NCBI GenBank assembly: GCA_038058635.1
Contig: JBBUAP010000001.1
Location: forward strand, 384,771 to 448,770
Direction: 5' to 3'
Source: Patescibacteria group bacterium
GTDB lineage: Bacteria; Patescibacteriota; UBA1384; 2-12-FULL-50-11
Length of the DNA: 64,000 nucleotides
In this document: positions 2,627 through 55,299 of the stretch, piece after piece
Numbering within the stretch: position 1 is the first letter of the stretch
Layout: each line of letters opens with the position of its first letter
Made by a program: the position numbers and the translations under genes
Notes under the pieces: generated by a model
What the model saw: the letters and a program-made list of their open reading frames with translations, nothing else
The model's database searches: none
What the model was told of the DNA's origin: nothing

Positions 2627-3383
2627 CAGCGGTTAGCAAGTTTTCGAATAAAAAACTGACTGTTAGGGGGCCGATCGCCCCTTTGGTGGGGGTAATCTTT
2701 TTGACTAGGGGTTCGATAGTTTTAACATCAACATCCAGGCCAGAGCCATCAACCACAACCATTTCCTGATGGACCATTTCTGGAGCAACTAAACCACGAA
2801 CGCCGGTGGCGGAGATTAGTAGATCGTGCTGACGGATATTTTCGGCCTGGGACTTGGCCTGCTTGGCGATAACAGTCAAAGGCCAATTGTTGGCCGCGAA
2901 AACCTTTGCCAGCGGTCCGCCGACCAACTTGCCCATACCCAAAACTACGGTTTTCAAGTCTTTTATCGCAATCTGGTGATATGACAATAAAGCCATAATG
3001 CTACTGGGGGTTGGCGAGTCGTACGGCGAGTTGCCGCTTAAATTGTCGATGTCTTTGATGGGGTTCACTTTCTGGATTAATGCCTCGGTATCTAATGATT
3101 TTGGTAGGGGCAGTTGAAGAACAATGCCGTCAATGTCTTGGCGTCGGTTGAGGCCATCGAGCATCGATTCTAATTGTTGTTGGCTGGCGGTGGGGAAATG
3201 GTGCAAGAAAAAATGACAATCCAACTTTTTGGCCATCGCTTGTTTGGCCCGGATATAGGTGGCGGTCTGCTTGTCTTCCCCCACCCAAACTAAAGCTAAG
3301 CCAGGGGAAGTTGATAGTTTTTGACGACGAGCGACTAGCTCGACAAGCCGCTGACTAAGAAGCGCCTTGGCTATCAGTTGCAT
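2610..3383 (-). CDS. folD: bifunctional methylenetetrahydrofolate dehydrogenase/cyclohydrolase
   Basis: 257 aa with DGIVLQLPLP and the GMGKLVGGPLA NAD(P)-binding region typical of FolD. Confidence 0.85.
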   Translation of the reverse strand: MQLIAKALLSQRLVELVARRQKLSTSPGLALVWVGEDKQTATYIRAKQAMAKKLDCHFFLHHFPTASQQQLESMLDGLNRRQDIDGIVLQLPLPKSLDTEALIQKVNPIKDIDNLSGNSPYDSPTPSSIMALLSYHQIAIKDLKTVVLGMGKLVGGPLAKVFAANNWPLTVIAKQAKSQAENIRQHDLLISATGVRGLVAPEMVHQEMVVVDGSGLDVDVKTIEPLVKKITPTKGAIGPLTVSFLFENLLTAAIRKS

Positions 3384-12404: not shown

Positions 12405-13052
12405 TCAATGCAAAAAGCTCTGGCGGTGGAGGGGGCAGGGGCCGATAGCGTCGAGGGCTTTTTTGTGCGCGAGAGTGCCGTATCCGGCGTTTTGCCGCCA
12501 GCAGTATTCGGGGTGAGCTTGGTGATAAACGCTCATTAATCGATCCCGGTAAACCTTGGCAACAATTGAGGCGGCGGCAACGGGATAAAACAGCGAATCG
12601 CCCCGAATGGCACTAATGAACCGAGGGACACCCGCCGGGTGGACTCGGTCGGTGAGAAGGAGGTCGACGCTAATGTCAGCTAAGGCGCGCTCATACGCCA
12701 GTCTTTGGGCGGCGGCCAAACCGAGCTGGTCGATTTCGTCGTTACTGGCTATACCGAAAGAGATTTGGAGGGCGGAGTAATGAATTTGATGGGCTAGTAA
12801 CTCTCGTTTTTGCGCGGAGAGTAACTTTGAGTCGTTGATGCCGTTAATCGGCTGATAAATCTCCACTGCCGCAACCACCAATGGCCCGGCTAAAGCGCCG
12901 CGGCCAACTTCGTCGATGCCAACAATTGTTTTGTAACCGAGTAACCGAAGGTCTTTAACGAACCTGGGCCTTGGCCTTCGCGACCGGTTTTTTGCCAATA
13001 ATGCTCGGCGAATCGTTTTCTTTGAGGAATCGGCCAGTAATCGATTTGGCAT
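12405..13052 (-). CDS. rnhB: ribonuclease HII
   Basis: IVGIDEVGRGALAGPLVVAAV and the DSK...IVAK motifs of RNase HII. The listed start overlaps the uvrA-paralog 3' end by 98 nt, so the true start may be a downstream non-AUG codon. Confidence 0.8.
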   Translation of the reverse strand: MPNRLLADSSKKTIRRALLAKNRSRRPRPRFVKDLRLLGYKTIVGIDEVGRGALAGPLVVAAVEIYQPINGINDSKLLSAQKRELLAHQIHYSALQISFGIASNDEIDQLGLAAAQRLAYERALADISVDLLLTDRVHPAGVPRFISAIRGDSLFYPVAAASIVAKVYRDRLMSVYHQAHPEYCWRQNAGYGTLAHKKALDAIGPCPLHRQSFLH

Positions 13053-15867
13053 TCTTCATAATATCCTCCGGTGTGCCTTCGGCCACAAGCTCACCGCCTT
13101 GATCGCCGCCATCGGGACCCAAGTCAATCACCCAATCGGCACAACGAATAACTTCTAGATTATGTTCGATAATAATAACGGTGTTACCCTTATCGACGAG
13201 CTGATAAAGAACTTTTAGCAAGCGCTGAATGTCCTCAAAATGGAGACCTGTCGTTGGCTCGTCGAGAATATATAAAGTTTTGCCCGTTTCGCGCTTGGCC
13301 AGTTCGGTCGCCAGCTTAATTCGCTGGGCCTCCCCGCCCGAAAGCGTCGTGGCTGGTTGACCGAGCCGCATATAACCCAAACCAACGGCCTGAAGCACTT
13401 CTAGTTTGTCGGTTACCTCGATACTACCTTTGAAAAATTCCAGGGCTTCGTCAACTGTCATTTGTAGAATATCGCTAATGTCTTTGTCGAGATATTTTAT
13501 CTCGAGCGTTTCGGGGTTGAAGCGCTTGCCGCGGCATTCGACACAAGGCACATAGACGTCGGGCAAAAAGTTCATCTCGATTTTCATCTGACCGTCACCG
13601 CGACAGTTTTCGCACCGACCGCCCCGTAAGTTAAAGCTAAATCTTGACGCTTCGTAGCCACGTTCTGATGCCTCGCGGGTAGCCGCAAACAGCTCTCTAA
13701 TTGGCCCAAGCGTACCAGTATAGGTGGCCGGATTACTGCGAGGGGTTCGGCCGATGGCTGACTGATCGACATTAATAATATTGTCGATTTTATCAAGACC
13801 GGTGATTTGGCCGTGCGGCGCCGCTTCGGCTTGGGTGCCGTGGAAGTGACTTTCAAGAGCCACGGCTAAGGTGTCTTCGATCAGGGTCGATTTACCCGAT
13901 CCAGACACGCCGGTAATACAAACGAGGCGATTGAGAGGGATCTTGACGGTGACGTTCTTCAAATTGTTGCCAGTGGCGCCTTGAATTTCTAGGCAGTCGG
14001 CTTCGTGCTCGTGACGATGGCTCGGTAGTTCAATCTTCTTTGCTCCCGACAAGTAAGCGCCGGTCAAAGACTTTTTGTCGGCTTTAATCTGTTCTGGCGT
14101 GCCGATGGCCATGATCTCACCGCCGAGTTCGCCGGCCCCCGGACCCATATCGATAATATGATCGGCGATTAGCATCGTGTCTTTGTCGTGCTCGACGACG
14201 ATGACGGTATTGCCGCGCTCTTTCAGTTCTTTAATTGTTTGGAGTAATTTCTGATGATCACGAGCGTGCAAACCGATTGATGGCTCGTCGAGAATGTAAA
14301 TGACGCCAGTCAAACCCGAACCCAATTGAGTGGCCAAGCGAACCCGCTGGGCTTCACCGCCGGCCAGCGTCGAAGTCGTTCGGTTCAAGGTGACATAACC
14401 CAAGCCAACTTCGAGCAGGTAACCCAGCCGTTCGGCCACTTCCTTAATGATAGGCGCGGCAATTTTTTTGTGGCCGTTGTCGCCAAAGACGGTTTTCAGT
14501 TCCTCAAAATATTTAGCGGCTTGTTCGATATTTAAACTCGTCACATCGATAATGTTCTTATCTTTAATTTTAATAGATAGCACCTCGACGCGGAGTCGTT
14601 GGCCGTGGCACGATGTACAAACTTTCTCGAGCATATATTTCTCAATTTCGTTGCGTAGGTAATCAGAGTCGGTCTCGCGATATCTTCGTTCTAAGTTTGG
14701 TAGAACGCCCTCAAAAAGTTCTGGGTCACCGTTACCCGCTCCTGGTTCGCCGTTCAAAATTGTGTTGAGGGTGGCTTCCGGTAGTTCGCCAACTGGTGTG
14801 TCTAAACTAAATTGATACTTGCTCGACATGGTGTTGAGCGTTTTTTGATACCAATTCGAATGCGAAGTTGTCCTACTCCACGGGCGAATCGCCCCCTCAG
14901 CGAGGGTTAATCGAGGGTTGGGGATCACTAGATCTTTATCGGCGACCATCTGTAAGCCCAAGCCCTGACAGATCTGGCAAGCGCCTTCAGGATTATTAAA
15001 AGAAAAGAGTCGCGGTTCGATGTCGGGGAACTGCCAGCCGCACTGACTACAGGCGTAACGCTGGGAGTAGAATCGTTCGCGACTGTTGTCGGGAGTGGTG
15101 GCTACCAGCAATCCGCCGCCGAGCTTAAGCGCTCGATCGACTAATTTTAAGAGGTCGACATAGGCGATCGATTCAGACTGTTCGTTCGAGACCGGAAAAT
15201 CAATGTTGCCGACCAATAGCTCGATGGTGTGGCGTTTGTTTTTGTCGACAGCCAAGGCCAGACTCTCGTCGATGTCCATCTCGATATTATCGAATCTGAC
15301 TCTTAAAACCCCGGCTTTTTTGGCCTGCTTCAAGTGATATTTATGCTCACCCTTACGGCCCTGAACAGCGATCGCAAATATCTTAGCCTTAAGAGTTTCA
15401 GCCTCGGTAAATTCCCGCAGAATTAAGCGAGCAATCGACTCGGTGGTTTGGGGTTTGATAGCAATGCCGCACTTGGGGCAAAAAGGTGTCCCAGCGCGGG
15501 AAAAGAGGAGGCGCAGGAAGTCGTAAATTTCGGTAGCGGTGGCAACGGTTGAGCGAGGATTGCGCGAGGCCGTTTTTTGGTCGATGGCGATGGCCGGCGA
15601 CAAACCCTCGATGTAATCGAAATCTGGTCGTTCGATGTCGCTCAAGAATTGACTGACATAAGAAGATAGCGACTCAACATAACGACGTTGGCCTTCGGCA
15701 AAAATCGTGTCAAACGCTAGCGATGACTTTCCCGATCCGGACAAGCCGGTAATAATGGTAATTTTATTTTTCGGTATCGTCACATTGAGGTTTTTGAGGT
15801 TATGCGTTCGCGCCCCAACGATTTGGATATTTTCTAAACTGTCCCTGGTTTGAATTGGTTTTAACAT
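12955..15867 (-). CDS. uvrA: excinuclease ABC subunit A paralog (full-length, second uvrA copy)
   Basis: Two ABC ATPase modules ([27 protein letters not shown] signatures) and zinc modules ([40 protein letters not shown]). Start taken at MLKPIQT (15867). Confidence 0.85.
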
Positions 15868-16032
15868 TAGACTGCGTGCTGTCGGCAATTGTACAGCACA
15901 AATGGGCAATAATGCAAGAGTCGAGCCCGCCGTAAGGCGGTGGGATAACGAATAACGCTCGCCTCCGTGCTACGCACGGCTAGACCCTTGCATTTAATTG
16001 TCGTTTCGCTACAACGAGAGAAGCGAAGAAAA

Positions 16033-20637: not shown

Positions 20638-20765
20638 GAAAGAATTAAGAATCAAGAATTAAGATTTGTCGCTACGCGACAAGCCCTTCGTAATTCCTAA
20701 CTACGAGATGCAATCGAGGAGCGAGCGCCAGCGACATTCCAAATTCGATATTCTAAATTCTGCGG

Positions 20766-21845: not shown

Positions 21846-21880
21846 ATTCGTAATTCGTTATTCGTGATTCGTAATTCGTC
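21846..21880. repeat. five tandem 7-bp repeats ATTCGTN immediately 5' of the der start codon
   Basis: attcgta attcgtt attcgtg attcgta attcgtc read directly at 21846-21880. The der ATG (minus strand) is at 21845. Confidence 0.9.
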
Positions 21881-21903
21881 ACTAGTAATTGTATTCTCTG
21901 CTT

Positions 21904-24545: not shown

Positions 24546-25919
24546 ATGAAAAAAGTTCGAGTCATCTACGACCCCATCTTGCGTCACAAAGTTAAGCCGG
24601 TGACGGTTTTTAACGACGAACTGAAAAAACTTTCTGAAGAAATGTTTTTAGTCATGCATAAAAATATCGGCATGGGCTTAGCGGCCAACCAGCTTGGAGT
24701 CGACCAGGACTTACTGGTGATTGAATATCGGCCTGTTAAAGACCGTGATGAAGATGGAGATCAAGACGGCGGAAAACCGATCGGCCCTCTCGTCCTCTGC
24801 AACACCAAAGTGATTAAAACCAGTCAAATCACCGAGACGATGAACGAGGGTTGTTTATCGCTGCCGGGCTTAGAACTGCCTGTCAATCGCCCGAGCGGCG
24901 TCATTGTCGAAGCTATGGACCTGACTGGTAAACCAGTAACCATTAAAGCCAAGGGGCTACTAGCCCGAATTTTACAGCACGAAGTCGACCATTTAGATGG
25001 CATACTATTCACCGATCGGGCGAGTGGCCTGAAGAATTTAAAAAATTACGCCGGCATGAAGATTGTTTTCTTTGGCTCGGACAATTTTTCTGTCCCAATT
25101 TTCCAAATACTCATTGAAAGCGGTTTGAATGTGATTGCCGCCGTGACCGAAACCGACAAACCGGCTGGCCGAGGCAACCAACTCACCATTACGCCCATCA
25201 AATCCGTTGCCACGGATGCCGGAATTGCGGTCGTCCAGCCCCAAACGAAAACGGAAATCATCGAGATTCTTCGTCAGCTCAAGCCAGATTTGATCGTGCT
25301 GGCTTCGTACGGCAAGATTTTGCCAGAAGAAGCTCTCATCATCCCCACTTACGGGGCGCTTAATGTCCACCCGTCACTTTTACCAAAATATCGTGGTGCT
25401 ACGCCGGTCCAATCGGCGATTTTAGCGGGTGAAAAGACAACTGGCGTGACGATTATGAAGATGAACGCCGGCGTTGATACGGGGGAGATTGTCGCTCAAT
25501 CAAAAACAGAACTTTCGAATGTGGAGACTTTTATCTCGCTTCGTGACCGACTCTCCCAACTAGGCGCTAAATTGCTAGTCGGCCAGCTGCCGCTTTACCT
25601 TTCTGGTACAGCCAACCTCCAGTTGCAAGGCAGTGACTCAACTCAAACCACAAAATTAGTTAAAGAAATGGGCGAGATCGATTGGACGCAGTCAGCCGAG
25701 TCAATCGACCGACAGATCCGCGCTCTCAATCCCTGGCCAGGGACTTTTACCTTTGTCGGCGACAAGCGACTCAAAATTCTGGAAGCCAGTTTGAACGGCG
25801 ATCGGCTCATACTCAAAACTGTCCAACTCGAAGGCAAAAATCCCACTGCCTGGCCTGAATTTGTCCGGGGCTACGAGCAACAGTTGAAAAATTGCTCCTG
25901 GTACGGTAAAATATCCTAA
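24546..25919 (+). CDS. def-fmt: fused peptide deformylase / methionyl-tRNA formyltransferase
   Basis: Residues 1-165 carry the Def motifs (GLAANQLGV, EGCLSLPG, HEVDHLDG). Residues 170-457 carry Fmt (MKIVFFGSDNFSVPIF.., SLLPKYRGATPVQSAIL, C-terminal domain). There is a single uninterrupted reading frame. Confidence 0.8.
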   Translation: MKKVRVIYDPILRHKVKPVTVFNDELKKLSEEMFLVMHKNIGMGLAANQLGVDQDLLVIEYRPVKDRDEDGDQDGGKPIGPLVLCNTKVIKTSQITETMNEGCLSLPGLELPVNRPSGVIVEAMDLTGKPVTIKAKGLLARILQHEVDHLDGILFTDRASGLKNLKNYAGMKIVFFGSDNFSVPIFQILIESGLNVIAAVTETDKPAGRGNQLTITPIKSVATDAGIAVVQPQTKTEIIEILRQLKPDLIVLASYGKILPEEALIIPTYGALNVHPSLLPKYRGATPVQSAILAGEKTTGVTIMKMNAGVDTGEIVAQSKTELSNVETFISLRDRLSQLGAKLLVGQLPLYLSGTANLQLQGSDSTQTTKLVKEMGEIDWTQSAESIDRQIRALNPWPGTFTFVGDKRLKILEASLNGDRLILKTVQLEGKNPTAWPEFVRGYEQQLKNCSWYGKIS

Positions 25920-26464
25920 TGTTAGTCGTCAGATTAAAGCGAATCGGCAAAAAGAACCAACCAACTTACCGTATTGTCGTGGCCGAACATTCCAACGCCG
26001 TCAACGGCCCATTTGTTGAAGACATTGGTTTTTACAACCCTCACACCAAGACTATTTCCGTCGATCAAGAAGCGGTCATCGGCTGGATGAACAAGGGCGC
26101 TAAGCCGTCCAATCGGGTCGCTCGATTACTCGAAAAAGAAAAAGTTCAGCACAAATCTGTTGTCGTTATTCAGTACCACAAAGCGTCGAAGAAAAAGGTT
26201 GAAGAGACGAAGCCAGCTCCTAAAGCGGAGACAGCGACCGACTTGCCCGCCGTAGCTTTAGCGGAGGAGGGAGAGACTGCTGAAGCGCCAACAGAGGGTG
26301 AGACCACCGAAACTACCGAGGAAGCTCCAGCTGAAACATCCGAGGAAGTAGCTACGACCGAAGAAGAAGCTCCTGCTGAGGAAGCGACCGAGGATGTAGT
26401 TGAAACACCCGAAGCTACCGAAGAGCCTGCTGAAAACAGTGAGCCCGTCGAATCTGCTGCCTAA
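25919..26464 (+). CDS. rpsP: 30S ribosomal protein S16 with about 95-aa acidic low-complexity C-terminal extension
   Basis: MLVVRLKRIGKKNQPTYRIVVAEHSNAVNGPFVEDIGFYNPH is typical of S16. The tail is E/T/A-rich. Confidence 0.85.
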   Translation: MLVVRLKRIGKKNQPTYRIVVAEHSNAVNGPFVEDIGFYNPHTKTISVDQEAVIGWMNKGAKPSNRVARLLEKEKVQHKSVVVIQYHKASKKKVEETKPAPKAETATDLPAVALAEEGETAEAPTEGETTETTEEAPAETSEEVATTEEEAPAEEATEDVVETPEATEEPAENSEPVESAA

Positions 26465-26553: not shown

Positions 26554-27018
26554 ATGCCAGCTAAAACAGAATTAACCGACCAAGAGTTTGTTGAGAATAT
26601 TGTTAAAGCCATTGTCGATCACCCAGAAGAAGTCGTTACCGGCCGGACGCTCGATGAGCGCGGCGTCTTGATTCAACTGACTGTCAACCGCGAAGATATG
26701 GGCAAAGTCATCGGACGAGAAGGTCGCACCGCCAAAGCGATTCGTTCCCTTTTGCGTGTTTTTGGGGCCCGTAACGAATCCCGAATTAACTTGAAAATTG
26801 TTGATCCCGAGGGTGGTACTGGTGATATTCCGGAAGAATCTGCCACCAAACCAGCGCCCGCTAAAAAAACCGAAAGTTCGGTCCCAGCGGAAAAACCAAC
26901 AGAAACAACCGAAAAAGTAGACGACTTGTCCGCCGAAACTTCAGTGAAGGCGGAAGCGCCCGTCGCCGAAATGTCTGCTGAAAAACCGATCGAAGAAAAA
27001 GCCACCGGCGTTTTCTAG
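26554..27018 (+). CDS. KH-domain RNA-binding protein (YlqC/UPF0109-like) with low-complexity tail
   Basis: KH core VIGREGRTAKAIRSLLRV. Position between rpsP and trmD is conserved. Confidence 0.7.
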   Translation: MPAKTELTDQEFVENIVKAIVDHPEEVVTGRTLDERGVLIQLTVNREDMGKVIGREGRTAKAIRSLLRVFGARNESRINLKIVDPEGGTGDIPEESATKPAPAKKTESSVPAEKPTETTEKVDDLSAETSVKAEAPVAEMSAEKPIEEKATGVF

Positions 27019-27086: not shown

Positions 27087-27731
27087 ATGACCATCGATGT
27101 CCTAACACTCTTCCCCGATTTAATTGACCAAGCTCTGGGCCATTCTATTCCCGCCCGAGCCCAGAAAGCTGGTCATATTGATATTCGAGCCCATCAACTG
27201 CGGACTTGGGCAATCGATCGTCATGGCACCGTCGACGACACGCCGTATGGCGGTGGTCCGGGGATGATTTTGCGGGTTGATGTCACTCATGCCGCGCTCG
27301 GAGCGCTTGATCACAGTCATAAAGCTCACCGGATTATGCTCTCTCCCGATGGTGATTTGTTTGATCAGCAGATGGCCGAAGATTTTGCGGCGAAAAAGCG
27401 ATTAATTCTACTCTGCGGTCGTTACGAAGGATTTGACGCCCGAATCGAAAAGTATGTCGATCAAAAAGTCTCGATCGGTTCATTCGTTCTTTCCGGTGGG
27501 GAGTTAGCCGCTCTAACGATCATCGACACGGTTACCCGTCTTATTCCGGGTGTTCTAGGCAACGCCGAGTCGCTCAAGGAAGAGACCTTCGAAGCCGATT
27601 TAACGGAATACCCGCAGTTTACCCGCCCGGAAATGTACAAAGGCATGACAGTTCCAGATGTGCTCCTGTCTGGCCATCACGCCGAAATCCAAAAATGGCG
27701 CGACTCCCAACGGCGTAAACTTGCTTCTTGA
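27087..27731 (+). CDS. trmD: tRNA (guanine37-N1)-methyltransferase
   Basis: SPOUT-fold TrmD motifs (IDVLTLFP, LLCGRYEGFDARI, LSGGELAALTIIDTV). Confidence 0.9.
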   Translation: MTIDVLTLFPDLIDQALGHSIPARAQKAGHIDIRAHQLRTWAIDRHGTVDDTPYGGGPGMILRVDVTHAALGALDHSHKAHRIMLSPDGDLFDQQMAEDFAAKKRLILLCGRYEGFDARIEKYVDQKVSIGSFVLSGGELAALTIIDTVTRLIPGVLGNAESLKEETFEADLTEYPQFTRPEMYKGMTVPDVLLSGHHAEIQKWRDSQRRKLAS

Positions 27732-28039
27732 ATCAATATTCTATATTCTTGGTACAGATGAGATCCTTACAGGACGAAATCCGGAAAGCCCAACAAGAAT
27801 TGACCTGTCCAGTTTGCGGTCGGATGTTCGAGTTGCGCGATATTCATATTCGGGCCTATGAGCTAAATAAAGCCGTCGAGCTTTCAGTTACCTGCAGTCG
27901 GGGGCATTTTCCGATCATTCTACTCGTGCCGTTGACGCTCAAGGATTTGGTTAAGGCCGGACCGATATCACCCTCCGAACTTAAACTTATCCACGCCGAG
28001 GTAGATTCCTTGCAGACCACTCTGGAAAAAGTCTTTTAA
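27728..28039 (+). CDS. hypothetical small protein with CxxC...C...H zinc-ribbon-like motif
   Basis: CPVCGRMF...CSRGH. Possible later start at 27758 (MRSLQD). Confidence 0.35.
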   Translation: MNQYSIFLVQMRSLQDEIRKAQQELTCPVCGRMFELRDIHIRAYELNKAVELSVTCSRGHFPIILLVPLTLKDLVKAGPISPSELKLIHAEVDSLQTTLEKVF

Positions 28040-28059
28040 ATCAGTTATAATTTTTCCTA

Positions 28060-28788
28060 ATGGAATCAGTGGCCTTAGCCGCCCGCTCGCGAGAGCTGAC
28101 CGGCAAAAAAGTTAAGACACTTCGGCTCAAGGGAGATATTCCTGGTGTCGTTTATGGTCACGGTTTAGACTCGACCCCAATCGTGGCGGAAAAAGTTGCC
28201 CTGAAGAAAGCTTACGCCAAGGCCGGTAGCGGTACTTTGGTCGATTTGACGATCGGTGAGCAAAAACCGATCAAGGTGCTTTTTCACGAACCCCAGTTAC
28301 ACTACTTAAACGGTGAGCCAATCCACTTCGACCTTTACGCCGTCAAGATGGACGAAGAGATCGAAACAACCATTCCAATTATCTTTGTTGGTATCTCGCC
28401 AGCCGTCGACGAGCTCGAAGGTAACTTCATCGCCAACCGCGACGAACTGACCATCCGCTGTTTGCCGGGCAACCTAATTCCGAATGTCGAAGTCGACATC
28501 TCTATTTTAAAAACCTTTGACGACTCTATTAAGGTTAGCGATATTCAAGTCCCGGAAACCGTCCAAATCCAAGACGAAATGGAAGAGACGGTCGCCTTGG
28601 TATCGGCACCGCGAAGCGAAGAAGAGCTGGAAGCTGAACTAGCCGAAGACAAAGCCGCCGAAGTTGCCGCTGTCAGCGCTCTCGGCGAAGAAGCTCCTGC
28701 CGCCGAAGGCGAAGCAACTGGAGGCGAGACCCCTGTCGAAGGTGACAAACCCGCTGCCCCAGCCGAACCTGCCGAAAAACCCGAATAA
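28060..28788 (+). CDS. rplY: 50S ribosomal protein L25 / general stress protein Ctc with Ala/Glu-rich tail
   Basis: L25 beta-barrel N-domain (TLRLKGDIPGVVYGHG) and the Ctc-type C-domain. Confidence 0.8.
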   Translation: MESVALAARSRELTGKKVKTLRLKGDIPGVVYGHGLDSTPIVAEKVALKKAYAKAGSGTLVDLTIGEQKPIKVLFHEPQLHYLNGEPIHFDLYAVKMDEEIETTIPIIFVGISPAVDELEGNFIANRDELTIRCLPGNLIPNVEVDISILKTFDDSIKVSDIQVPETVQIQDEMEETVALVSAPRSEEELEAELAEDKAAEVAAVSALGEEAPAAEGEATGGETPVEGDKPAAPAEPAEKPE

Positions 28789-28807
28789 ACTCTAAACTAA
28801 CAAACCG

Positions 28808-28834
28808 AAAAAAGGAGCATCCGCTCCTTTTTTG
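28808..28834 (+). terminator. rho-independent terminator (bidirectional A-tract/hairpin/T-tract)
   Basis: aaaaaa-GGAGC-atcc-GCTCC-tttttt read directly downstream of rplY. Confidence 0.6.
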
Positions 28835-28841
28835 GTCGCTC

Positions 28842-28872
28842 TTGACGAACAGAGAGAGAGAGAGAGTTAAAT
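28842..28872 (+). promoter_or_regulatory. sigma70-like promoter TTGACG-N19-TTAAAT whose spacer is an (AG)8 dinucleotide tract
   Basis: -35 at 28842-28847, (AG)8 at 28851-28866, -10 at 28867-28872, AAGGAGG SD at 28883-28889, ATG at 28895. Confidence 0.35.
28851..28866. repeat. (AG)8 simple sequence repeat
   Basis: agagagagagagagag read directly. Confidence 0.95.
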
Positions 28873-28894
28873 GGCAGTATTAAGGAGGTTGAAA

Positions 28895-29500
28895 ATGGAA
28901 AACGAAAAAGGCCCATCACCACAGGAAGATTTAGGTGAATCAAAGCAGGAAGTATCAGGCAGCAAACTTGAGCTTGAAGAAGGTGCAGATCAGCATGCGG
29001 AAGAGCTGCGCCGTCATCTGGATACAGAAAATTGGAGCAATTTAGATCTTATGGATTCCAAAAGCGAATTAAAGTCTTGCAACGAGGCTGTGAAGCAACT
29101 AGATGAGAACATTAGAATCATAGGATCGACACGCATCGATAGTGATCTGTTTGCATGGAAGAATGTAGGTGAACGTCAGTGGTCGCCGGATTCGGATCGT
29201 TATCGCAGGGATTATGATAGAAAACAGTATGTTAGCGAAAGTCTAGCCGAACTCGAGAAACTACGGGAAAAGCTAATAAAAGAATTGGAACACCGTCGGG
29301 ATGACTTTCAAACTCGTGCTCACTATGCGGAGGAGAGTATTGAAAAAGAGAAACTTGAAATAAAGGACCATGTAAAAGGTAAACACGAGGAAGAATTTAG
29401 CGAATTGCAGAACGCCGAGTGGAAGCCCGTCCCAGTCGAAGACGGTGCCGAACCCGCTCCCGCCGAAGACCCACCAAATACTAACGAGAAAACAAACTGA
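28895..29500 (+). CDS. hypothetical highly charged coiled-coil-like protein
   Basis: About 200 aa, E/K/R/D-rich. Strong SD. No signal peptide or known domain. Confidence 0.5.
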   Translation: MENEKGPSPQEDLGESKQEVSGSKLELEEGADQHAEELRRHLDTENWSNLDLMDSKSELKSCNEAVKQLDENIRIIGSTRIDSDLFAWKNVGERQWSPDSDRYRRDYDRKQYVSESLAELEKLREKLIKELEHRRDDFQTRAHYAEESIEKEKLEIKDHVKGKHEEEFSELQNAEWKPVPVEDGAEPAPAEDPPNTNEKTN

Positions 29501-29681
29501 CAGATCTTACTGTCAGGAAGCAACCACCGGCGAAACCTCGCCGGCGGTAGCTTCATATATCAAAATAACAATCAAAGAATCGCCACAGAGTTCTTATGTG
29601 GTATACCACATTATAACTCTGAATAATTGGAGCCACCTCGGGGAATTGAACTAGGCGCCCATACTTTACGGAGAATAAGTG

Positions 29682-29753
29682 AGCCGGAGGCGGGGATTGA
29701 ACCCGCGACTTGCTGTTTACGAAACAGCTACTCTACCACTGAGTTACTCCGGC
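29682..29753 (-). tRNA. tRNA-Thr (anticodon CGT)
   Basis: The reverse complement folds as GCCGGAG-TA-ACTC-AGTGGTA-GAGT-A-GCTGT-TT-CGT-AA-ACAGC-AAGTC-GCGGG-TTCAATC-CCCGC-CTCCGGC-T. Confidence 0.8.
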
Positions 29754-29882
29754 ATTCATCGCTTTACCACTGCCTGCCCAGCTTCAAGCGCACCGCGTGA
29801 CAGAATGTAATTCTGTAAGCTGGTAAGCTTCGGGGCTGGGAGCTACGCTAGCAACCTCTACCATTTTACCTCGATAGACCAT

Positions 29883-29922
29883 AAAAAAGAATCGCCCCCC
29901 TACCTATGGTAGTTTGGGGCGA
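29883..29922 (-). terminator. rho-independent terminator of the zinc-ribbon gene
   Basis: On the minus strand: CGCCCC(A)-[CTACC-ATA-GGTAG]-GGGGGGCG followed by ATTCTTTTTTAT. Confidence 0.5.
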
Positions 29923-30236
29923 GAGTGACGAAATTCGAGCTGAACCACCTCGGGCGGGTTGTCGCTGTCTAAGACGTCGGCGATCACATCGATTGCGTCG
30001 ACAGCGCGTCCTCTGATTTTCAACTTCCCGTTGGCCGTTGTTTTCTCCCAGGTGATTTCACACTTGGGGCAATCATAGAGTATGACACTACCGTGTTCCT
30101 TCGCAATCTGTGATCTACTGGAGTCTGGCGGAAGGGGGTTTTGATCGGCGAACTTACCGATCCTTTCCTCCTCCATCTTGGTTCCACAATTCGGGCAAAA
30201 GCATTCCATAGCGGCCTCCTCGAAAGAGCTAAACAC
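29904..30236 (-). CDS. hypothetical zinc-ribbon protein
   Basis: CPNCG...CPKC pair. Has its own terminator. Overlaps an alternative-frame ORF (30020..30256), which I judged spurious. Confidence 0.45.
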   Translation of the reverse strand: MFSSFEEAAMECFCPNCGTKMEEERIGKFADQNPLPPDSSRSQIAKEHGSVILYDCPKCEITWEKTTANGKLKIRGRAVDAIDVIADVLDSDNPPEVVQLEFRHSRPKLP

Positions 30237-30274
30237 AGCTTAGCGTTTATTGACAAAATGTCAACACGGGTGAG

Positions 30275-31042
30275 CTACTTCAGGGCTTTGCGGAAGGAGA
30301 GCATGGTGAAGGTAACGAAGACTACAAACATCCCACCGGCGGCCAGGAAGGCATAACCGATGTCTGGGCTACCCCAGCCATCTAAGACCAGCGCCCTAAT
30401 ACCTTCAATGATATGAGTGACGGGGTTGTAGTCGGTGATGGTGGCGAATGTTGACGGCAGTAACTCGCGCGGAGTTTGGGAAGTGGTTAGATATAAGAGC
30501 GGGAAGACAAGAATGAATAGCGATTGAACCAGCCGGGCATTTTGGGTTCGCAGAGCGCTAATCATACCGATACAACTCCAGGCCATCGCAAAAATGATCA
30601 GAATCGCAAATATTGCTAAGACCCCCAGGAAGCCGGACTGAATCCTCACCCCCCAAAGCAAAAGTAGGGTTAACATGATGATTCCTTGGCCCAATGATTG
30701 GACGGCGATTTCTGCTAATTTAGCTAAGACTATCGCCAAACGGTTAATTGGCATTATGATCAATTTTTTGAAATAACCACTCTGAATATCTTGAACCAAC
30801 TCAATGCCGGCATTACCAGCCGAAAAGAAAATCGCGGTAAATATTGCCACCGGCGCGATGAAATCTTTGTACGATACATCTGGGAAACCCGGGACTTGAG
30901 CGAGAGCAGAAAGCGATAGCGAGTTAACAGCAAAGAAGAAAATTGGCATAAAGAACGGTGGCAGTAACGCCAAAAGAGGCCGCCATATTAATTTGATGTT
31001 GCGGATTGAAAGGTAATACCAGTCACTGAAAAATGTATTCAT
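30275..31042 (-). CDS. ABC-2 type transporter permease
   Basis: Six-TM ABC-2 family topology. 4-nt overlap with the ATPase gene. Confidence 0.75.
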   Translation of the reverse strand: MNTFFSDWYYLSIRNIKLIWRPLLALLPPFFMPIFFFAVNSLSLSALAQVPGFPDVSYKDFIAPVAIFTAIFFSAGNAGIELVQDIQSGYFKKLIIMPINRLAIVLAKLAEIAVQSLGQGIIMLTLLLLWGVRIQSGFLGVLAIFAILIIFAMAWSCIGMISALRTQNARLVQSLFILVFPLLYLTTSQTPRELLPSTFATITDYNPVTHIIEGIRALVLDGWGSPDIGYAFLAAGGMFVVFVTFTMLSFRKALK

Positions 31043-47983: not shown

Positions 47984-49648
47984 CTAGGAGTCAACAGTCT
48001 TTAGAGATTTTTTCCGCTGACGCTGGCGATGAAATCCGATGACAAAGCGATGCGTTTCGTCGCGGATACGAGCAAGTAGAAGAACTCCCTTATGTCCCCG
48101 CGTCGCCAGAACGGGTTTTTTCTTTCCCGGCAAAAATATCCGATCTGGCTTCTTGGCAAGAGCGATAAATCGCAGCATCTGGCCACTTGCTTCTGGCTCC
48201 TTGCTAGTCTGCCAGTTGCTAGTAGCTAGTTGCTCCGCCGCCTTAAGGGCGGCGGCAAGCTGTTCCGGTCCACCATCAACCACAAACAAATCCGGTAGCG
48301 GTCGGGAAGTGTCCGCGAAACGCCGGGCGGTCACTTCAGCGATCATCGCAAAGTCATCTTGCCCCTCAACCGTTTTGATTTTATAGCGCCGATACTCGTT
48401 TTTATCCGGTATACCATTAATAAAACAAACGGTGGCCCCAACCGGTTCGCTCGCACCGAGGTTAGATATATCAACCGCTTCGATCCGTTGCGGCAATTTA
48501 CCTAACCCTAATAATTCTTTGATGGCGATAACTCCAAGCATACTCGAATCTTGGTTTACTAAGCTGGATTCAAGTTTAGCTCCAGCGTTCTTTTTGGCTA
48601 ACGCCACAAAGTCTACCTTGTCGCCGCGCGTGGCAACTCGTAGCTCGATCGAATGACCGGACATCGTTTCCAACCACCCTTCAATCAGTTTCTGGTCATC
48701 GATAGCAGTCTCAAGAATAATTAAACTCGGGTGTACTGGGAAGTTAGCATAAAGTGTTAAGAAAAATTGGCGAATAACTTCGCTTTCCGCTTGATCAATC
48801 GGTGAGTCAAAGACAAACTGCTTCTGCCCGCTCATTACCCCCTGACGAACCATGAGTAATGTTACGACAGATCGATTATTAGTTTCAGCGGTGGCGATGA
48901 CATCGAAATCTTCCTGGGCTTGCCCAACGATGTGCTGTTTAGTCGTTACTTGTCTTATTGCCCTTAACTGATCGCGCAGTTTCGCCGCCAGCTCGTAGTT
49001 CTTTGCCTCCGAGGCCTGATTCATTCGCAAACTCAAGTCCTTGGAAAGCGAGTTGCGTTTGCCAAGCAAGAATTCAACAGATTTTGTTACCTTGACAGCA
49101 TATGCTTCAGCAGATATTTCACCGGCCAACGGGCATGAGTTATTTTCAAGCTGGCAGTTTAAGCAGGGCCGAGCATTACCAGAGGGCAAGGCTCGATTAC
49201 TGATATGAACGCCGTAAAGCCGGCGCAAGAACTCGCAAGTTAGTCGTGCCGACCAGGCCGATAGATAGGGACCAAAGTATTTTGCCCCGTCGCGAGCGCG
49301 TTTGCGGACAACCTGAAAGCAGGGGAACGGCTCGTTGACGGTTAGTTTAATAAATGGGTAGGCCTTGTCGTCAGTTAGTTTGATATTGTACTTCGGCAAA
49401 TATTCGCCGATTAAGCGGGATTCCAAAATTAGGGCCTCGAGTTCGTTGTTGACGACAATTATTTCAATGTCATCAATTAACCCGATCATCACGCTCACCC
49501 ACGGTCGATCTAAGTGTTTGTTTGTAAAATAGCTTCCAACCCGATTTCTCAAGTTTTTGGCCTTGCCAACATAGAGCACGGCGCCAGAGTCGTCCTTGAA
49601 AAGATACACACCAGGCTGGGTTGGCAGATTGTTGGTCAACTTTTTCAT
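47984..49648 (-). CDS. uvrC: excinuclease ABC subunit C
   Basis: N-terminal GIY-YIG (GVYLFKD..LYVGKAKNLRNRV), UvrBC interaction region, and C-terminal RNase H-like/HhH region. Confidence 0.9.
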   Translation of the reverse strand: MKKLTNNLPTQPGVYLFKDDSGAVLYVGKAKNLRNRVGSYFTNKHLDRPWVSVMIGLIDDIEIIVVNNELEALILESRLIGEYLPKYNIKLTDDKAYPFIKLTVNEPFPCFQVVRKRARDGAKYFGPYLSAWSARLTCEFLRRLYGVHISNRALPSGNARPCLNCQLENNSCPLAGEISAEAYAVKVTKSVEFLLGKRNSLSKDLSLRMNQASEAKNYELAAKLRDQLRAIRQVTTKQHIVGQAQEDFDVIATAETNNRSVVTLLMVRQGVMSGQKQFVFDSPIDQAESEVIRQFFLTLYANFPVHPSLIILETAIDDQKLIEGWLETMSGHSIELRVATRGDKVDFVALAKKNAGAKLESSLVNQDSSMLGVIAIKELLGLGKLPQRIEAVDISNLGASEPVGATVCFINGIPDKNEYRRYKIKTVEGQDDFAMIAEVTARRFADTSRPLPDLFVVDGGPEQLAAALKAAEQLATSNWQTSKEPEASGQMLRFIALAKKPDRIFLPGKKKPVLATRGHKGVLLLARIRDETHRFVIGFHRQRQRKKSLKTVDS

Positions 49649-49721: not shown

Positions 49722-52583
49722 TCAAGGGCGTCTGGAAACAGATGCCCCTTTCTTTTGCCCAAACAAGACTTTGTCTAAAACCTGACCCGTAAGAGAGGAT
49801 TGGTTCTGACTGACTTCTTCGGGTGTGCCTTTAGCGACGATTTCGCCACCCTTCTCACCGCCACCAGGACCCAGATCAATTAGCCAGTCGGCTGACTTAA
49901 TAACATCCAAATTATGCTCGATTACCACCACCGTATTGCCCCGGTCAACGAGCGTCTGGAGAACACCGAGCAGTTTTTCAACATCGGCAAAATGCAGGCC
50001 AGTTGTTGGCTCGTCTAAAATATACAAAGTAGCGCCGGTATCGCGCTTGGCTAACTCGGCCGCCAACTTAATGCGCTGGGCTTCGCCGCCCGACAGTGTT
50101 GTAGCGCTCTGGCCCAAGCGGACATAGCCCAAACCAACTTTCTGCATCGTTTTAAGTTTGTCGGCGATGGTGTGAATATTAGAAAAGAACTCCAGCGCCT
50201 CGTCGATGGTCATATTCAAAATTTGCGAAATCGTTTTGCCTTTCCACATTACTTCCAGCGTTTCGCGGTTGTAGCGCGTTCCTTTACAGACGTCACAAGT
50301 GATATAAACATCCGGCAGGAAATTCATCTCGATTTTAATTTGACCGTCGCCTTGGCAGTTCTCACAACGGCCACCGATAACATTGAAACTAAAGCGGCCC
50401 GGTTTGTAGCCGCGACTACGAGCGGCCGGTGTGGCGGCAAACAGCTGACGAATTGGGTCGAAGGCCTTGGTGTAAGTGGCGGGGTTACTTCTAGGGGTGC
50501 GGCCGATGGGGGACTGGTCGATCTCGATCATTTTATTGATATGCTCAACACCGCTCAATCCTTCGTGCGCCCCTGGCGTCAGCATGCCGTGACCCATGCG
50601 GCGATTGACGGCCTTGCTTAAGATCTCGGCGATTAAGGTTGACTTGCCACTGCCCGATACGCCGGTCACAACAACAAAACGCGAAGTCGGGAAATTGACG
50701 GTAATATTCTTCAGGTTGTTCTCTGTCGCGCCGTGGACGGTCAGCATTCGGTGGCCTTTGGCCACTTCGCGCCGTTCGGGGATAACGAGGGCTTTTTCGC
50801 CACGCAAGTACGGGGCCGTGACGGATTTGGGATTATTCAGAACTTCGTCGTAAGTGCCGCTGGCGACAATCTCGCCGCCGTGTTCGCCGGCGCCCGGGCC
50901 AATATCGACCAAGAAGTCGGCCGCCCGCATTGTTTCCTCGTCGTGCTCAACGACAATGACGGTGTTGCCTAGATCCCGGAGGCGATGAAGCGTTTCGATC
51001 AGTTTGGCGTTGTCTGTCGGGTGCAGGCCGATTGTCGGTTCATCCAAGACATAAAGGATACCAACTAGCGCTGAACCGATCTGGGAGGCCAGGCGAATGC
51101 GCTGGCTTTCGCCGCCGGCCAAGGTAGTCGCTGAACGATCGAGTGTCAGATAGTCCAAGCCAACTTTTGACAGAAACTCCAGGCGGCTAGAAATTTCTAT
51201 AATCACTTTGTCGACGATGGATTTGTCGCGAGCGGTCAATTTTAGCGAACTAAAGTAATCTCGGGCCTTATCGACGGTCAGCGAAGTGATATCCGAGATG
51301 TTCAGGCCGCCGACCTTAAAGATTAACGCCTCTTGCTTCAGGCGGGCGCCCTTACAGCTCTGACACGGGCTTGCTAGCATATACTTTTCTATCTCATCAC
51401 GGACCCGATCGGAGTCAGTCTCGAGATAGCGGCTATCTAAATGGGGAATTAAGCCCTTGAACCAAACGCTGAAATGCTGGGCTTGGCCATGGGAGAAGTA
51501 TTTGAGCGGAATTTTGAACGGCTTCTCCAGCCCTTGCAGTAATTTTGCTAATTGTTTTGGATCGAGATCTTTGATCGGCAGATCAATACTTAAGTCAAAA
51601 TGTTCGGCAACATTTTTGATTAATATGCCGTAGTAGTTGGTGCTGGAAAAATTCCACGGCATAACACCGCCTTCGGCGATGGTTTTGGACGAATCGGGAA
51701 TGATTAGGTCTTCAGTGATAACTTTGCGATAGCCCAAACCGTGACAGTCTTCACAGGCGCCGTACGGCGAATTGAAGGAAAACGATCGCGGGGAAATTTC
51801 GCCGAGCGAAAAGCCGTCGTACGGGCAGGCTAAGTCTTGCGAGAGTAGAATTTCGTCGTCCTTGCCTTCTTGGGCGACGATAACCAAGCCCTTACTTAAC
51901 TTCATCGCCGACTCGATTGCTTCATTGAGGCGCGAACGGGTGCTGGAACCAATTATTAATCGATCGATCAGAACCTCGATCTTGTGGGCTTTGTAACGAT
52001 CGAGTTCGATCTTATCGCTTAAACTGAAAATCTCGCCGTTGACGCGGACAGTGCCGAACCCTCCTTTATATAGGTCGTGCAATAACTGGTGATATTCGCC
52101 CTTGCGACCGCGGACCACCGGCGCCAAAACGCTGATGCGGGTGCCTTCCGGTAAACCGACGATCAGATCGACCATTTGGTCGACGCTTTGACGAGCAATT
52201 TGGCGATCGCATTTGGGGCAGTAGGGGATACCGACGCGGGCAAAGAGTAGTCGCAGGTAATCGTAAATTTCAGTGACGGTGCCGACGGTGGAGCGAGGGT
52301 TATGAGAGTTGGCTTTCTGGTCGATCGAGATGGCCGGTGACAAACCTTCGATATAATCGACATCGGGTTTTTCCATCTGACCCAAAAATTGTCGGGCATA
52401 AGATGAAAGCGATTCCATATATCTGCGCTGGCCTTCGGCATAAATTGTGTCAAACGCCAAACTTGATTTACCGGAGCCTGACAAACCCGTGAAAACGATC
52501 AATTTTTCCCGCGGCAATTCGAGATCAATGTTTTTGAGGTTGTGCTCACGAGCGCCTTTGATAAAGATTCTGTCTTGAGACAT
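49722..52583 (-). CDS. uvrA: excinuclease ABC subunit A
   Basis: Tandem ABC modules and zinc modules. Located in the uvrB-x-y-uvrA-uvrC cluster. Confidence 0.9.
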
Positions 52584-53277: not shown

Positions 53278-55299
53278 TTATGTCAATTCTGGGTGAAAGT
53301 CAATGGCTTGGGCACTCAAATCCTTTCGGTCTTTCTGCATTTTCTTCAGCTTGATTACCTCGTCACGGAGAATCGCGGCCAATTCAAATTGAAGTTCTTG
53401 AGCGGCTAGTTTCATCTGGCGCTCTTTGTCTTTAATCAACGAATCGATATTGCTTTTGGCCAGCTGGGTTTCGATTTTATCCAAACCGACCGATGCCGTG
53501 AGCTCTTGCTCGACAATCGAGGTGATACTTTTAGAGATACTCCTTGGGGTGATGCCGTGCTCCTTATTATAGGCAGACTGAATTGTTCGGCGTCGGTTGG
53601 TTTCGTCGATCGCTTTTTTCAGTGAATCGGTGATTGTATCGGCATAGAGAATGACTTGACCTTGGACATGACGAGCGGCTCGACCGATGGTTTGAATGAG
53701 GGATCGCTCACTGCGGAGGAATCCTTCTTTGTCGGCGTCCAAAATGCCAACCAGCGACACTTCCGGCAGATCCAACCCTTCGCGAAGTAAGTTGACGCCG
53801 ATTAAGACATCAAAAGTTCCCTTGCGTAACTCCCGCAATATTTCGATCCGTTCTAATGTTTCGACACCGCTATGAAGGTAGCGGACACGAATGCCTTGTT
53901 CGAGCAGGTAGTCGGTCAGATCTTCGGCCATTTTTTTCGTCAGCGTCGTCACCAAAGTTCGTTCTTCGCGAGCGACCCGGCCCTTAATTCGTTCTTGTAA
54001 GTCTTTAACCTGGCCATCAACAGGTTGGATGATCAGCTCGGGGTCAATGAGGCCAGTCGGACGAATGATTTGCTGGGCAGTATTCTCTGATCGTTCTAGC
54101 TCGTACACCCCAGGGGTGGCCGAGGTGTAAATCGTTTGGCCAACCTTCTGTTCAAACTCGGCGAAACGCAACGGTCGGTTATCTTTGGCTGATGGCAAGC
54201 GAAAACCGTAGTCGACCAAGACTTCTTTGCGGGCTTTGTCGCCGTTATACATCCCGCCAATCTGCGAAACGGTTACATGGGACTCGTCGATGATCGTCAG
54301 GAAATCGGGATTGGAGCGAATGAAGTAATCAAACAATGTTGTCGGCGTACTGCCCGGCTCTCGGCCATCAAAATGTCGGGAGTAGTTTTCGATGCCATTG
54401 CAGTAGCCGACCTCGCGAATCATCTCCATGTCATAAAGCGTCCGGCGAGCCAGGCGATCGGCTTCAATGCCTTTGTTTTCTTTTTCTAGGACTTTGAGGC
54501 GGTCTTTCAGCTCCGCTTCAATCGATTCAACTGCCCGATCCATTCGCTCAACCGGCATCACAAAGTGTCGAGCCGGGTAGAAAACGGCTAAACGCTTGTG
54601 TTCGATAATTTCGCTGGTAACTGGATCGATCTCTTGAATTTCCTCGACTGTATCGCCAGCAAGTTTCAAACGGATGATGCGCATTGCGTTGGCTGGCATC
54701 ACTTCAATGATCTCGCCACGGGTCCGGAAGTCGCCTCGTTTCAGCTCAACATCGTTGCGCTGATATTGGAGGAAAACTAATTTGTCTAAGAGTTGTTCGC
54801 GGGGGATTGTCTGACCCTTGGTAATGACGAGACTGGCCTTTTGATACTCATCTGGTGAACCCAAGCCGTAAATGCAGGAGACGGATGCAACGATAATCGT
54901 ATCTTGGCGGGTCAGAATGGCCTGGGTGGCGGCGTGACGAAGGCGATCGATCTCGTCGTTAATTTGGGCTTCCTTTTCTATGTATGTATCGGAGTTGGGC
55001 ATATAGGCCTCGGGTTGGTAGTAGTCGTAATAAGAAACGAAATATTCAACGGCGTTTTTAGGGAAGAATTGGCGGTACTCACTCGTTAGCTGGGCGGCCA
55101 GTGTTTTGTTGTGGGCAATGACGAGAGTGGGCTTTTGAACTGCCGCGATAACATTGGCGGCGGTGAAAGTCTTACCCGAGCCGGTCACACCCAAAAGCAC
55201 CTGATGCTTCAGGCCTTTGTTAATTCCCTTCATCAGCGACTCAATCGCCTTCGGCTGATCCCCCGCTGGTTTCATGTCCGTTGCCAGTTCAAACTGCAT
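53278..55299 (-). CDS. uvrB: excinuclease ABC subunit B
   Basis: Helicase motifs ([13 protein letters not shown]), beta-hairpin region, and C-terminal UVR domain. Confidence 0.9.

Follow-up and report, generated by a model that had tools for sequence, protein, structure and literature searches.

An AG dinucleotide repeat as the spacer of a candidate promoter switch in an uncultured member of Candidatus Berkelbacteria

In an uncultured groundwater bacterium, an AG repeat forms the spacer of a putative promoter, lying between its -35 and -10 halves. We regard the locus as a candidate repeat-in-spacer promoter switch, as yet unproven, which is the first that we could find for the candidate phyla radiation and is of a kind that is itself already known. 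The reading that we consider on balance the probable one, if only just, is that of a real sigma-70-type promoter with a selectively kept pure (AG)n spacer, slippage of which would make it a two-state switch or tuner. A sigma-70-type promoter between the terminator of the gene for ribosomal protein L25 and a ribosome-binding site would drive an accessory, fast-evolving orphan gene (the 'MENEK' gene); slipped-strand mispairing would add or remove one AG unit; each such step would take the promoter from a predicted strong form with a 17-nt spacer (7 units) to a predicted weak one with a 19-nt spacer (8 units), or back; and the length of the tract would act as a two-state expression switch or tuner. 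The organism from which the window comes (by the window we mean the whole 64-kb stretch of DNA analyzed) has the 19-nt allele, for which low expression is predicted.

Promoter layout and conservation among relatives

The locus follows a run of genes in the order S16, KH protein, TrmD, a 93-aa open reading frame (orf93), and L25; its features are collected in Table 1. An earlier note on this DNA had described TTGACG, a 19-nt spacer with (AG)8, and TTAAAT, followed by a gene for a highly charged protein of about 200 aa with a strong Shine-Dalgarno (SD) sequence. On re-reading positions 28500-29700, all coordinates of the promoter elements proved exact, and the protein has 201 aa with 52 D+E, 31 K+R, and a pI of 4.7, its AAGGAGG standing 6 nt from the ATG.

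Table 1. Features of the locus between the L25 gene and tRNA-Thr (positions in the window)
Feature	Position	Strand	Remarks
Ribosomal protein L25/Ctc gene	28060..28788	+	Pfam Ribosomal_L25p + TL5_C; upstream neighbor
L25 intrinsic terminator hairpin, AAAAAAGGAGC-ATCC-GCTCCTTTTTT	28808..28833	+	11-bp stem predicted, -13.9 kcal/mol
-35 element TTGACG	28842..28847	+	TTGAC the same in 7/7 lineages
Variable 3 nt of spacer, AAC in the window	28848..28850	+	CGC or ATC in relatives
(AG)8 tract	28851..28866	+	16 of the 19 spacer nt; pure in 7/7 lineages
-10-like TTAAAT plus GG	28867..28874	+	TTAAAT at 28867-28872; TTAAATGG the same in 7/7 lineages
Predicted transcription start region	28875..28881	+	Inferred at ~28877-28880; sequence differs between lineages
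Shine-Dalgarno AAGGAGG	28882..28888	+	6 nt 5' of ATG (28895-28897)
Orphan 'MENEK' gene	28895..29500	+	201 aa, acidic, accessory, fast-evolving; helical hairpin predicted
tRNA-Thr(CGT)	29681..29753	-	ARAGORN and Rfam; far boundary of variable islet

The L25 hairpin has the features of an intrinsic terminator, namely, a GC-containing hairpin, a T-run, and a position directly 3' of the L25 gene, and in the alignment its stem is kept while its loop differs in the seven lineages that carry the element. As it has an A-tract as well as a T-tract, it could act in both directions, and a scan also scored it as terminator-like on the minus strand. The gap from this terminator to the SD sequence is 48 nt and is filled by the proposed promoter, whose transcription start was placed at the usual distance of ~7 nt past the -10 element.

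Within the window, the (AG)8 tract is the sole dinucleotide run of more than 4 units in 64 kb; (AG)6 is expected 0.00 times in dinucleotide-preserving shuffles, and the AG-tract motif has no second copy in the 64-kb window. The pair of hexamers taken alone is not above chance: sites with matches of >=5/6 and >=4/6 at a 19-nt spacing number 24 in the window versus 25 in shuffles, and a consensus promoter scan did not list the TTGACG/TTAAAT pair, since its spacer exceeds 18 nt and its second hexamer has no A at position 2. By the T for A at this position, TTAAAT departs from the local TA(G/T)AAT type, and the -11 A that sigma-70 normally needs is absent from it. On the evidence of the window by itself, the promoter would be no more than a guess; it is the conservation in relatives that, on the alignments available, lifts the pairing above chance.

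The seven lineages with the element are congeneric 'Ca. Berkelbacteria' and represent one genus-level group; members of the orf93 cluster carry the name Candidatus Berkelbacteria. Exact-protein look-ups placed the window's own lineage in four independent assemblies (ERZ1292638, ERR3858135, ERR3858133, and ERR3858118), all four of which have an identical intergenic region with (AG)8. Among 5.8 and 1.8 billion proteins, the MENEK family had only four members, that of the window and three relatives (P0002-P0004). P0002, or sp2, is represented by ten contigs from ten samples and one contig from a scan of JGI metagenomes, and TTGACG-CGC-(AG)7-TTAAAT, with a 17-nt spacer, is found in 11/11; P0003 (L018) and P0004 (L019) both read TTGACG-AAC-(AG)8-TTAAAT. 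Because the MENEK protein is too divergent to be traced further, more lineages were reached by synteny via the orf93 cluster: L024 (GCA_024653705.1) has AAC-(AG)8, L035 has TTGACG-AAC-(AG)7-TTAAAT, and L034, L036, and L037 have TTGACA-ATC-(AG)7, in which the -35 element is a perfect consensus. Both element and gene are absent from five further lineages (L022/23, L025-27, L028, L029/30, L033, and L039/40), which have other small ORFs between L25 and the tRNA. A search of JGI metagenomes for the exact pattern of tract plus downstream block gave only two contigs, both sp2 and both (AG)7; a 20-mer scan of GTDB species genomes gave only two matches, which lie in Firmicutes MAGs and were judged to be due to chance; and two viral scans for the element gave no matches.

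No base differs among the seven aligned lineages in the stem of the hairpin, in TTGAC, in the C that precedes the tract, in the (AG)7 core, or in TTAAATGG, AGGAGG, and ATGGARAAYGAAAAAG; the MENEK gene begins with the same five codons in 7/7 lineages. The only stretch that varies between the -35 and -10 elements is the 3 nt after the -35 element; also variable are the 7-9 nt that lead from the -10 element to the SD sequence and the spacer between SD and ATG, AGGAGG being present 6-8 nt from the ATG in all seven. Neutral sites are largely randomized, as pairwise four-fold-site identity is 0.27-0.75, and the six lineages compared agree at only 18 of 115 four-fold columns (0.157). At 0.157 per four-fold column, the invariance of 14/14 tract core columns has a P of ~5e-12, and that of TTAAATGG, from the same rate, a P of ~4e-7. 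Conserved -35, -10, and SD sequences together with an unconserved start region make up what is, by comparison among relatives, the well-supported footprint of a real promoter, so that phylogenetic footprinting across seven lineages backs the promoter assignment made in the earlier note. The same footprint places the repeat inside the promoter, with TTGAC and TTAAATGG fixed on either side of the tract while neighboring bases vary. Judged by this alignment, the spacer is conserved as a pure repeat, beyond what an ordinary spacer needs, and is selectively kept.

Other ways of parsing the region were considered and rejected. ATG 28871 as the start codon is contradicted both by its distance to the MENEK ATG, which shifts by non-multiples of 3 in relatives, and by public gene calls, which use the 201-aa form. 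With TATTAA (28878-83) as an alternative -10 element, the conserved SD sequence would drop out of the mRNA. We infer that neither a sigma-54 nor an ECF reading applies: TGGCAG stands without a -12 element, and GAAC is not kept in sp2 or sp8.

At many genes of the window, a TA(G/T)AAT hexamer ends 6-8 nt before the start codon with no SD sequence, for example, at 28023-28051 before L25 (ATG 28060) and before the starts at 24546, 27087, 31839(-), 47237(-), and 55299(-). This arrangement suggests that leaderless mRNAs may be widespread in the organism, and it is by its strong SD sequence that the MENEK gene stands out. Other repeats occur elsewhere in the window. The 43-nt gap between a minus-strand gene (start 21845) and a PriA-like gene (start 21889) is taken up entirely by five imperfect tandem copies of a heptamer (ATTCGTN; 21846-21890), which could bind a protein or mark another promoter region that contains repeats. 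In an intergenic region between convergent genes, a small hairpin (GTCGCTACGCGAC) lies between two heptamer arrays, AAGAATT (x3.6) and its near-complement (ATTCTAA, CGAAATT), at 20640-20664 and 20732-20761.

Repeat number and the proposed slippage switch

The tract has 8 units, and the spacer 19 nt, in four lineages (window, L018, L019, and L024), and it has 7 units, with a spacer of 17 nt, in three (L006-L017, L034/36/37, and L035); no other length occurs among the seven. The one-unit-shorter allele with a 17-nt spacer that the earlier note had predicted exists in L035, which has the window's exact flanks and equals the window sequence minus exactly one unit. The two further (AG)7 lineages have other 3-nt flanks.

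On a neighbor-joining tree built from orf93 and L25 DNA without bootstrap support, the 8-unit window and L019 share one clade; the other contains L007, L034/36, and L035, all with 7 units, and, nested among them, L024 with 8. The downstream genes agree with this independently: L024 (8 units) and L035 (7 units) have a MENEKGLSGD-type gene in common, as the window, L018, and L019 (8 units) and sp2 (7 units) have a MENEK[GD]PS-type gene. The interspersion of states on the tree and the difference between the sister alleles of L024 and L035 require at least two independent one-unit changes. Within lineages, no variation in length was seen in 18 independent assemblies (4 from the lineage of the window, 11 from sp2, and 3 from sp8), in which the consensus hides minority alleles. 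The sp8 assemblies include two strains that differ by 1% over orf93-L25 and have the same repeat number, and Logan contigs, which are consensus sequences, pass through the tract with no break there. The heterogeneity in repeat number for which the earlier note had proposed to look is, then, present between congeneric lineages (7 versus 8 units) and was not seen within them; its reading of the tract as a site of slippage-driven phase variation is upheld as regards the promoter, the one-unit alleles, and the purity of the repeat, and finds no counterpart in these consensus assemblies as regards variation within a lineage.

Going by general promoter rules, the difference between 17 and 19 nt should affect transcription. 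Other candidate promoters of the group have 16-18-nt spacers and TA(G/T)AAT -10 elements (e.g., TGGAAA-17-TATAAT before L25 and TTGAAT-17-TAGAAT in L040), and since their spacers stay within 16-18 nt, a 2-nt step should matter. Contingency loci keep their tracts pure, and the genes that they control are often accessory and hypervariable. A pure tract, two lengths that are one slippage step apart, and a hypervariable accessory gene are what second-order selection for a switch predicts. PhasomeIt sets a cutoff of >=6 dinucleotide units for candidate phase-variable loci (PMC6321876), and the tract has 8 units in the window and 7-8 in relatives. Of the five features that define phase variation mediated by simple sequence repeats, two were found here, namely, the repeat length and the position in a conserved promoter.

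On the other hand, several observations argue against a switch: (i) the number of repeats is constant at the level of the lineage; (ii) four of the seven lineages stay in the 'suboptimal' 19-nt state with their ORFs intact, which would be odd if 19 nt disabled a useful gene; (iii) TTAAAT has no -11 A, and the hexamer pair by itself is at chance level; (iv) the MENEK product appears to be a soluble, nonsurface protein; and (v) 7-8 dinucleotide units would lie near the lower limit of useful mutability. The literature held nothing usable on the mismatch-repair status of the group, and neither mutS nor mutL is present in the 64-kb window. The window does contain two UvrA paralogues, at 12955-15909 (-) and 49722-52583 (-), together with UvrB (53278-55299) and UvrC (47984-49648).

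The downstream gene and the variable islet

The MENEK protein has no hydrophobic segment, signal peptide, or membrane segment, and no match in Pfam or PADLOC. AlphaFold2, run on the four-sequence alignment, gave a mean pLDDT of 74, with helices at 21-77 and 101-173 forming a hairpin and with disordered acidic ends. Foldseek against PDB gave no match with an E value of <0.1; the best matches were generic helical hairpins (colicin, FliJ, V-ATPase G subunit, LapA, and EsxAB), and, as they are generic with E values above 0.1, no functional assignment was drawn from them. The product is predicted to be a soluble, cytoplasmic-looking helical hairpin and would not be a typical surface or restriction-modification target.

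The protein is only 27-70% identical to its relatives, compared with 92-94% for L25 and 87-94% for L25 and TrmD together. Between the window and L019 (2877-3386), MENEK is 36% identical, whereas L25 and TrmD of the same genomes are 91-94% identical, and the first and second codon positions of the gene are equally diverged (0.58 and 0.58). This divergence suggests either that the gene has diversified to an extreme degree or that its body was exchanged while the promoter and the first five codons stayed conserved.

In both protein and DNA sequence (repeat D3), the Pro/Ala/Glu-rich C-terminal tail of MENEK is similar to that of L25. The tail-coding DNA of L25 (28738-28769) and of MENEK (29441-29472) is 72% alike and could be a recombination substrate for cassette exchange; Pro/Ala/Glu-rich acidic tails also end the unrelated S16 (25919-26464) and KH protein (26554-27018). 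A hairpin at 29497-29516 overlaps the MENEK stop codon and, read on the minus strand, leads into a T-rich run; the tRNA-Thr transcript of that strand probably terminates here.

Other cassettes are found between L25 and tRNA-Thr in relatives. The last 18 nt of the L25 gene (GCCGAAAAACCCGAATAA; GCCGAAAAACCCGARTAA), at 28771-28788 of the window, recur in relatives as a junction direct repeat, with copies at 3281-3298 and 3877-3894 in L007, 42-59 in L018, about 4350-4372 in L022, and about 2530-2548 in L023. These repeats flank ORFs inserted between L25 and the cassette with the AG promoter, the 3' end of L25 being duplicated in L007 and L018. The islet has at least three kinds of cassette, of which one is an acidic ORF of 131-143 aa, one a membrane ORF of 101 aa, and one the MENEK gene together with its promoter. 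A gene for an ECF-type sigma factor stands after L25 on the opposite strand and replaces the cassettes in one related lineage, that of L025 (4122-4706, minus strand), L026, and L027.

Alternative explanations, known systems, and significance

The conservation of the tract can also be explained by alternative rationales. One, which we judge unlikely but take seriously, is that the tract is a fixed cis-regulatory element at a real promoter, conserved for its sequence or structure and not as a switch. It could be the site of a regulator or a homopurine tract with unusual twist, rise, or H-DNA propensity, the structure of which would let a 19-nt spacer work or make the promoter sensitive to supercoiling; the differences between 7 and 8 units would then be rare, lineage-fixed changes, either adaptive or compensated. 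Exactly 8 units with the same AAC flank in four lineages that have diverged at neutral sites would fit this explanation, as would the conservation of the spacer in sequence and not in length alone, given that a plain spacer would not require a sequence, and the constancy of counts within lineages in 18 independent assemblies, read as consensus. The conserved 19-nt spacer also recalls promoters that need a distortion of the DNA, such as those of the MerR type. Spacers of 19-20 bp are found in MerR-family promoters, and an over-long spacer of 19 nt is conserved here, between good -35 and -10 elements, in four lineages; unlike those promoters, the present one has no dyad-symmetric operator in its spacer, (AG)n not being an inverted repeat, three lineages have 17 nt, and no MerR-family gene occurs in the neighborhoods seen. 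Against a regulator site more generally, (AG)n is without dyad symmetry of the kind used by dimeric regulators, no regulator gene is adjacent in any lineage, and the window holds no second copy of the motif. A site or a structural spacer should, moreover, not tolerate repeated clean 2-bp changes, of which at least two have occurred.

It is improbable, in our estimation, that the tract is instead transcribed and acts as RNA, which would call for transcripts that either run past the L25 terminator or begin upstream of 28851. As a purine repeat in the leader, it would bind an RNA-binding protein or provide the strong SD sequence with a standby or enhancer site for ribosomes; Hfq of Gram-positive bacteria is known to bind (AG)n. 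The tract is only 16 nt away from the SD sequence, on its upstream side, both being invariant, the -10-like hexamer is noncanonical, and in sp2 and sp3 another ORF precedes the region and no separate promoter is apparent, all of which would suit a function in RNA. Such a function would leave unexplained why TTGAC and TTAAATGG are fixed at promoter-like distances while the bases from -10 to SD vary, and the strong conserved terminator hairpin directly upstream also speaks against it. On folding, the tract took part in no significant RNA structure (z = -1.9, mostly from the terminator), and the leader has no Rfam match, tRNA-Thr being the only one in 27500-30500 at an E value of <=1. A chance or neutral microsatellite beside accidental promoter-like hexamers, to which the chance frequency of the hexamer pair alone in the window would lend itself, has next to no probability: (AG)6 is expected 0 times in shuffles, and the sharing of the tract and both hexamers by seven lineages, at ~16% invariant neutral columns, contradicts and, on comparative grounds, excludes it.

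The slippage switch that we prefer has its closest described counterpart in the hifA/hifB fimbrial promoter of Haemophilus influenzae, where a (TA)9-11 spacer is the switch and one-unit changes move the spacer between favorable and unfavorable lengths (PMC2651432). The likeness proposed in the earlier note holds here, as both loci have a pure dinucleotide repeat between -35 and -10, one unit of which shifts the spacer by 2 bp (PMC2651432). The present locus differs in that the repeat is AG and not TA, the promoter is single and not one of a divergent, overlapping pair, the target is a soluble orphan protein and not fimbriae, and the two lengths, which are the only ones, differ between lineages and not between isolates and are known from sequences alone. 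In the Vmm (TA)n of Mycoplasma mycoides and the vlp poly(A) of M. hyorhinis, repeats in promoter spacers have been shown experimentally to be switches. These systems have in common with ours a spacer repeat, a small variable gene, a reduced genome, and a conserved 5' region before a divergent coding body; unlike the surface lipoproteins Vmm and Vlp, which have signal peptides, the MENEK product has none. In porA and opc of Neisseria, the length of a homopolymer tract sets the -35/-10 spacing, with graded or on/off expression. The earlier note had also drawn the likeness to these genes; unlike their homopolymers with 1-bp steps and several lengths, the AG tract has 2-bp steps and two states.

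To conclude, our literature search found no paper linking phase variation to Patescibacteria, and, to our knowledge, almost all known cases of phase variation driven by repeats come from host-adapted pathogens and mycoplasmas. Much of bacterial diversity belongs to the Patescibacteria, which as yet cannot be cultured on their own. The AG-repeat promoter raises a concrete, testable hypothesis of stochastic switching in this group and offers a naturally replicated comparison of 17- and 19-nt spacers for the promoter rules of these organisms; should the tract prove to be a fixed element, one would still have to explain anew why an (AG)8 spacer is so strictly conserved. In its fullest form, which we advance tentatively and consider rather unlikely, the proposal would make this locus the first of the contingency type in the candidate phyla radiation, a slippage-prone (AG)7/8 spacer stochastically switching a hypervariable, lineage-specific helical-hairpin protein in a cassette-exchange islet. 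If this were true, it would mean bet-hedging in the interaction of ultra-small episymbionts with their hosts or phages.
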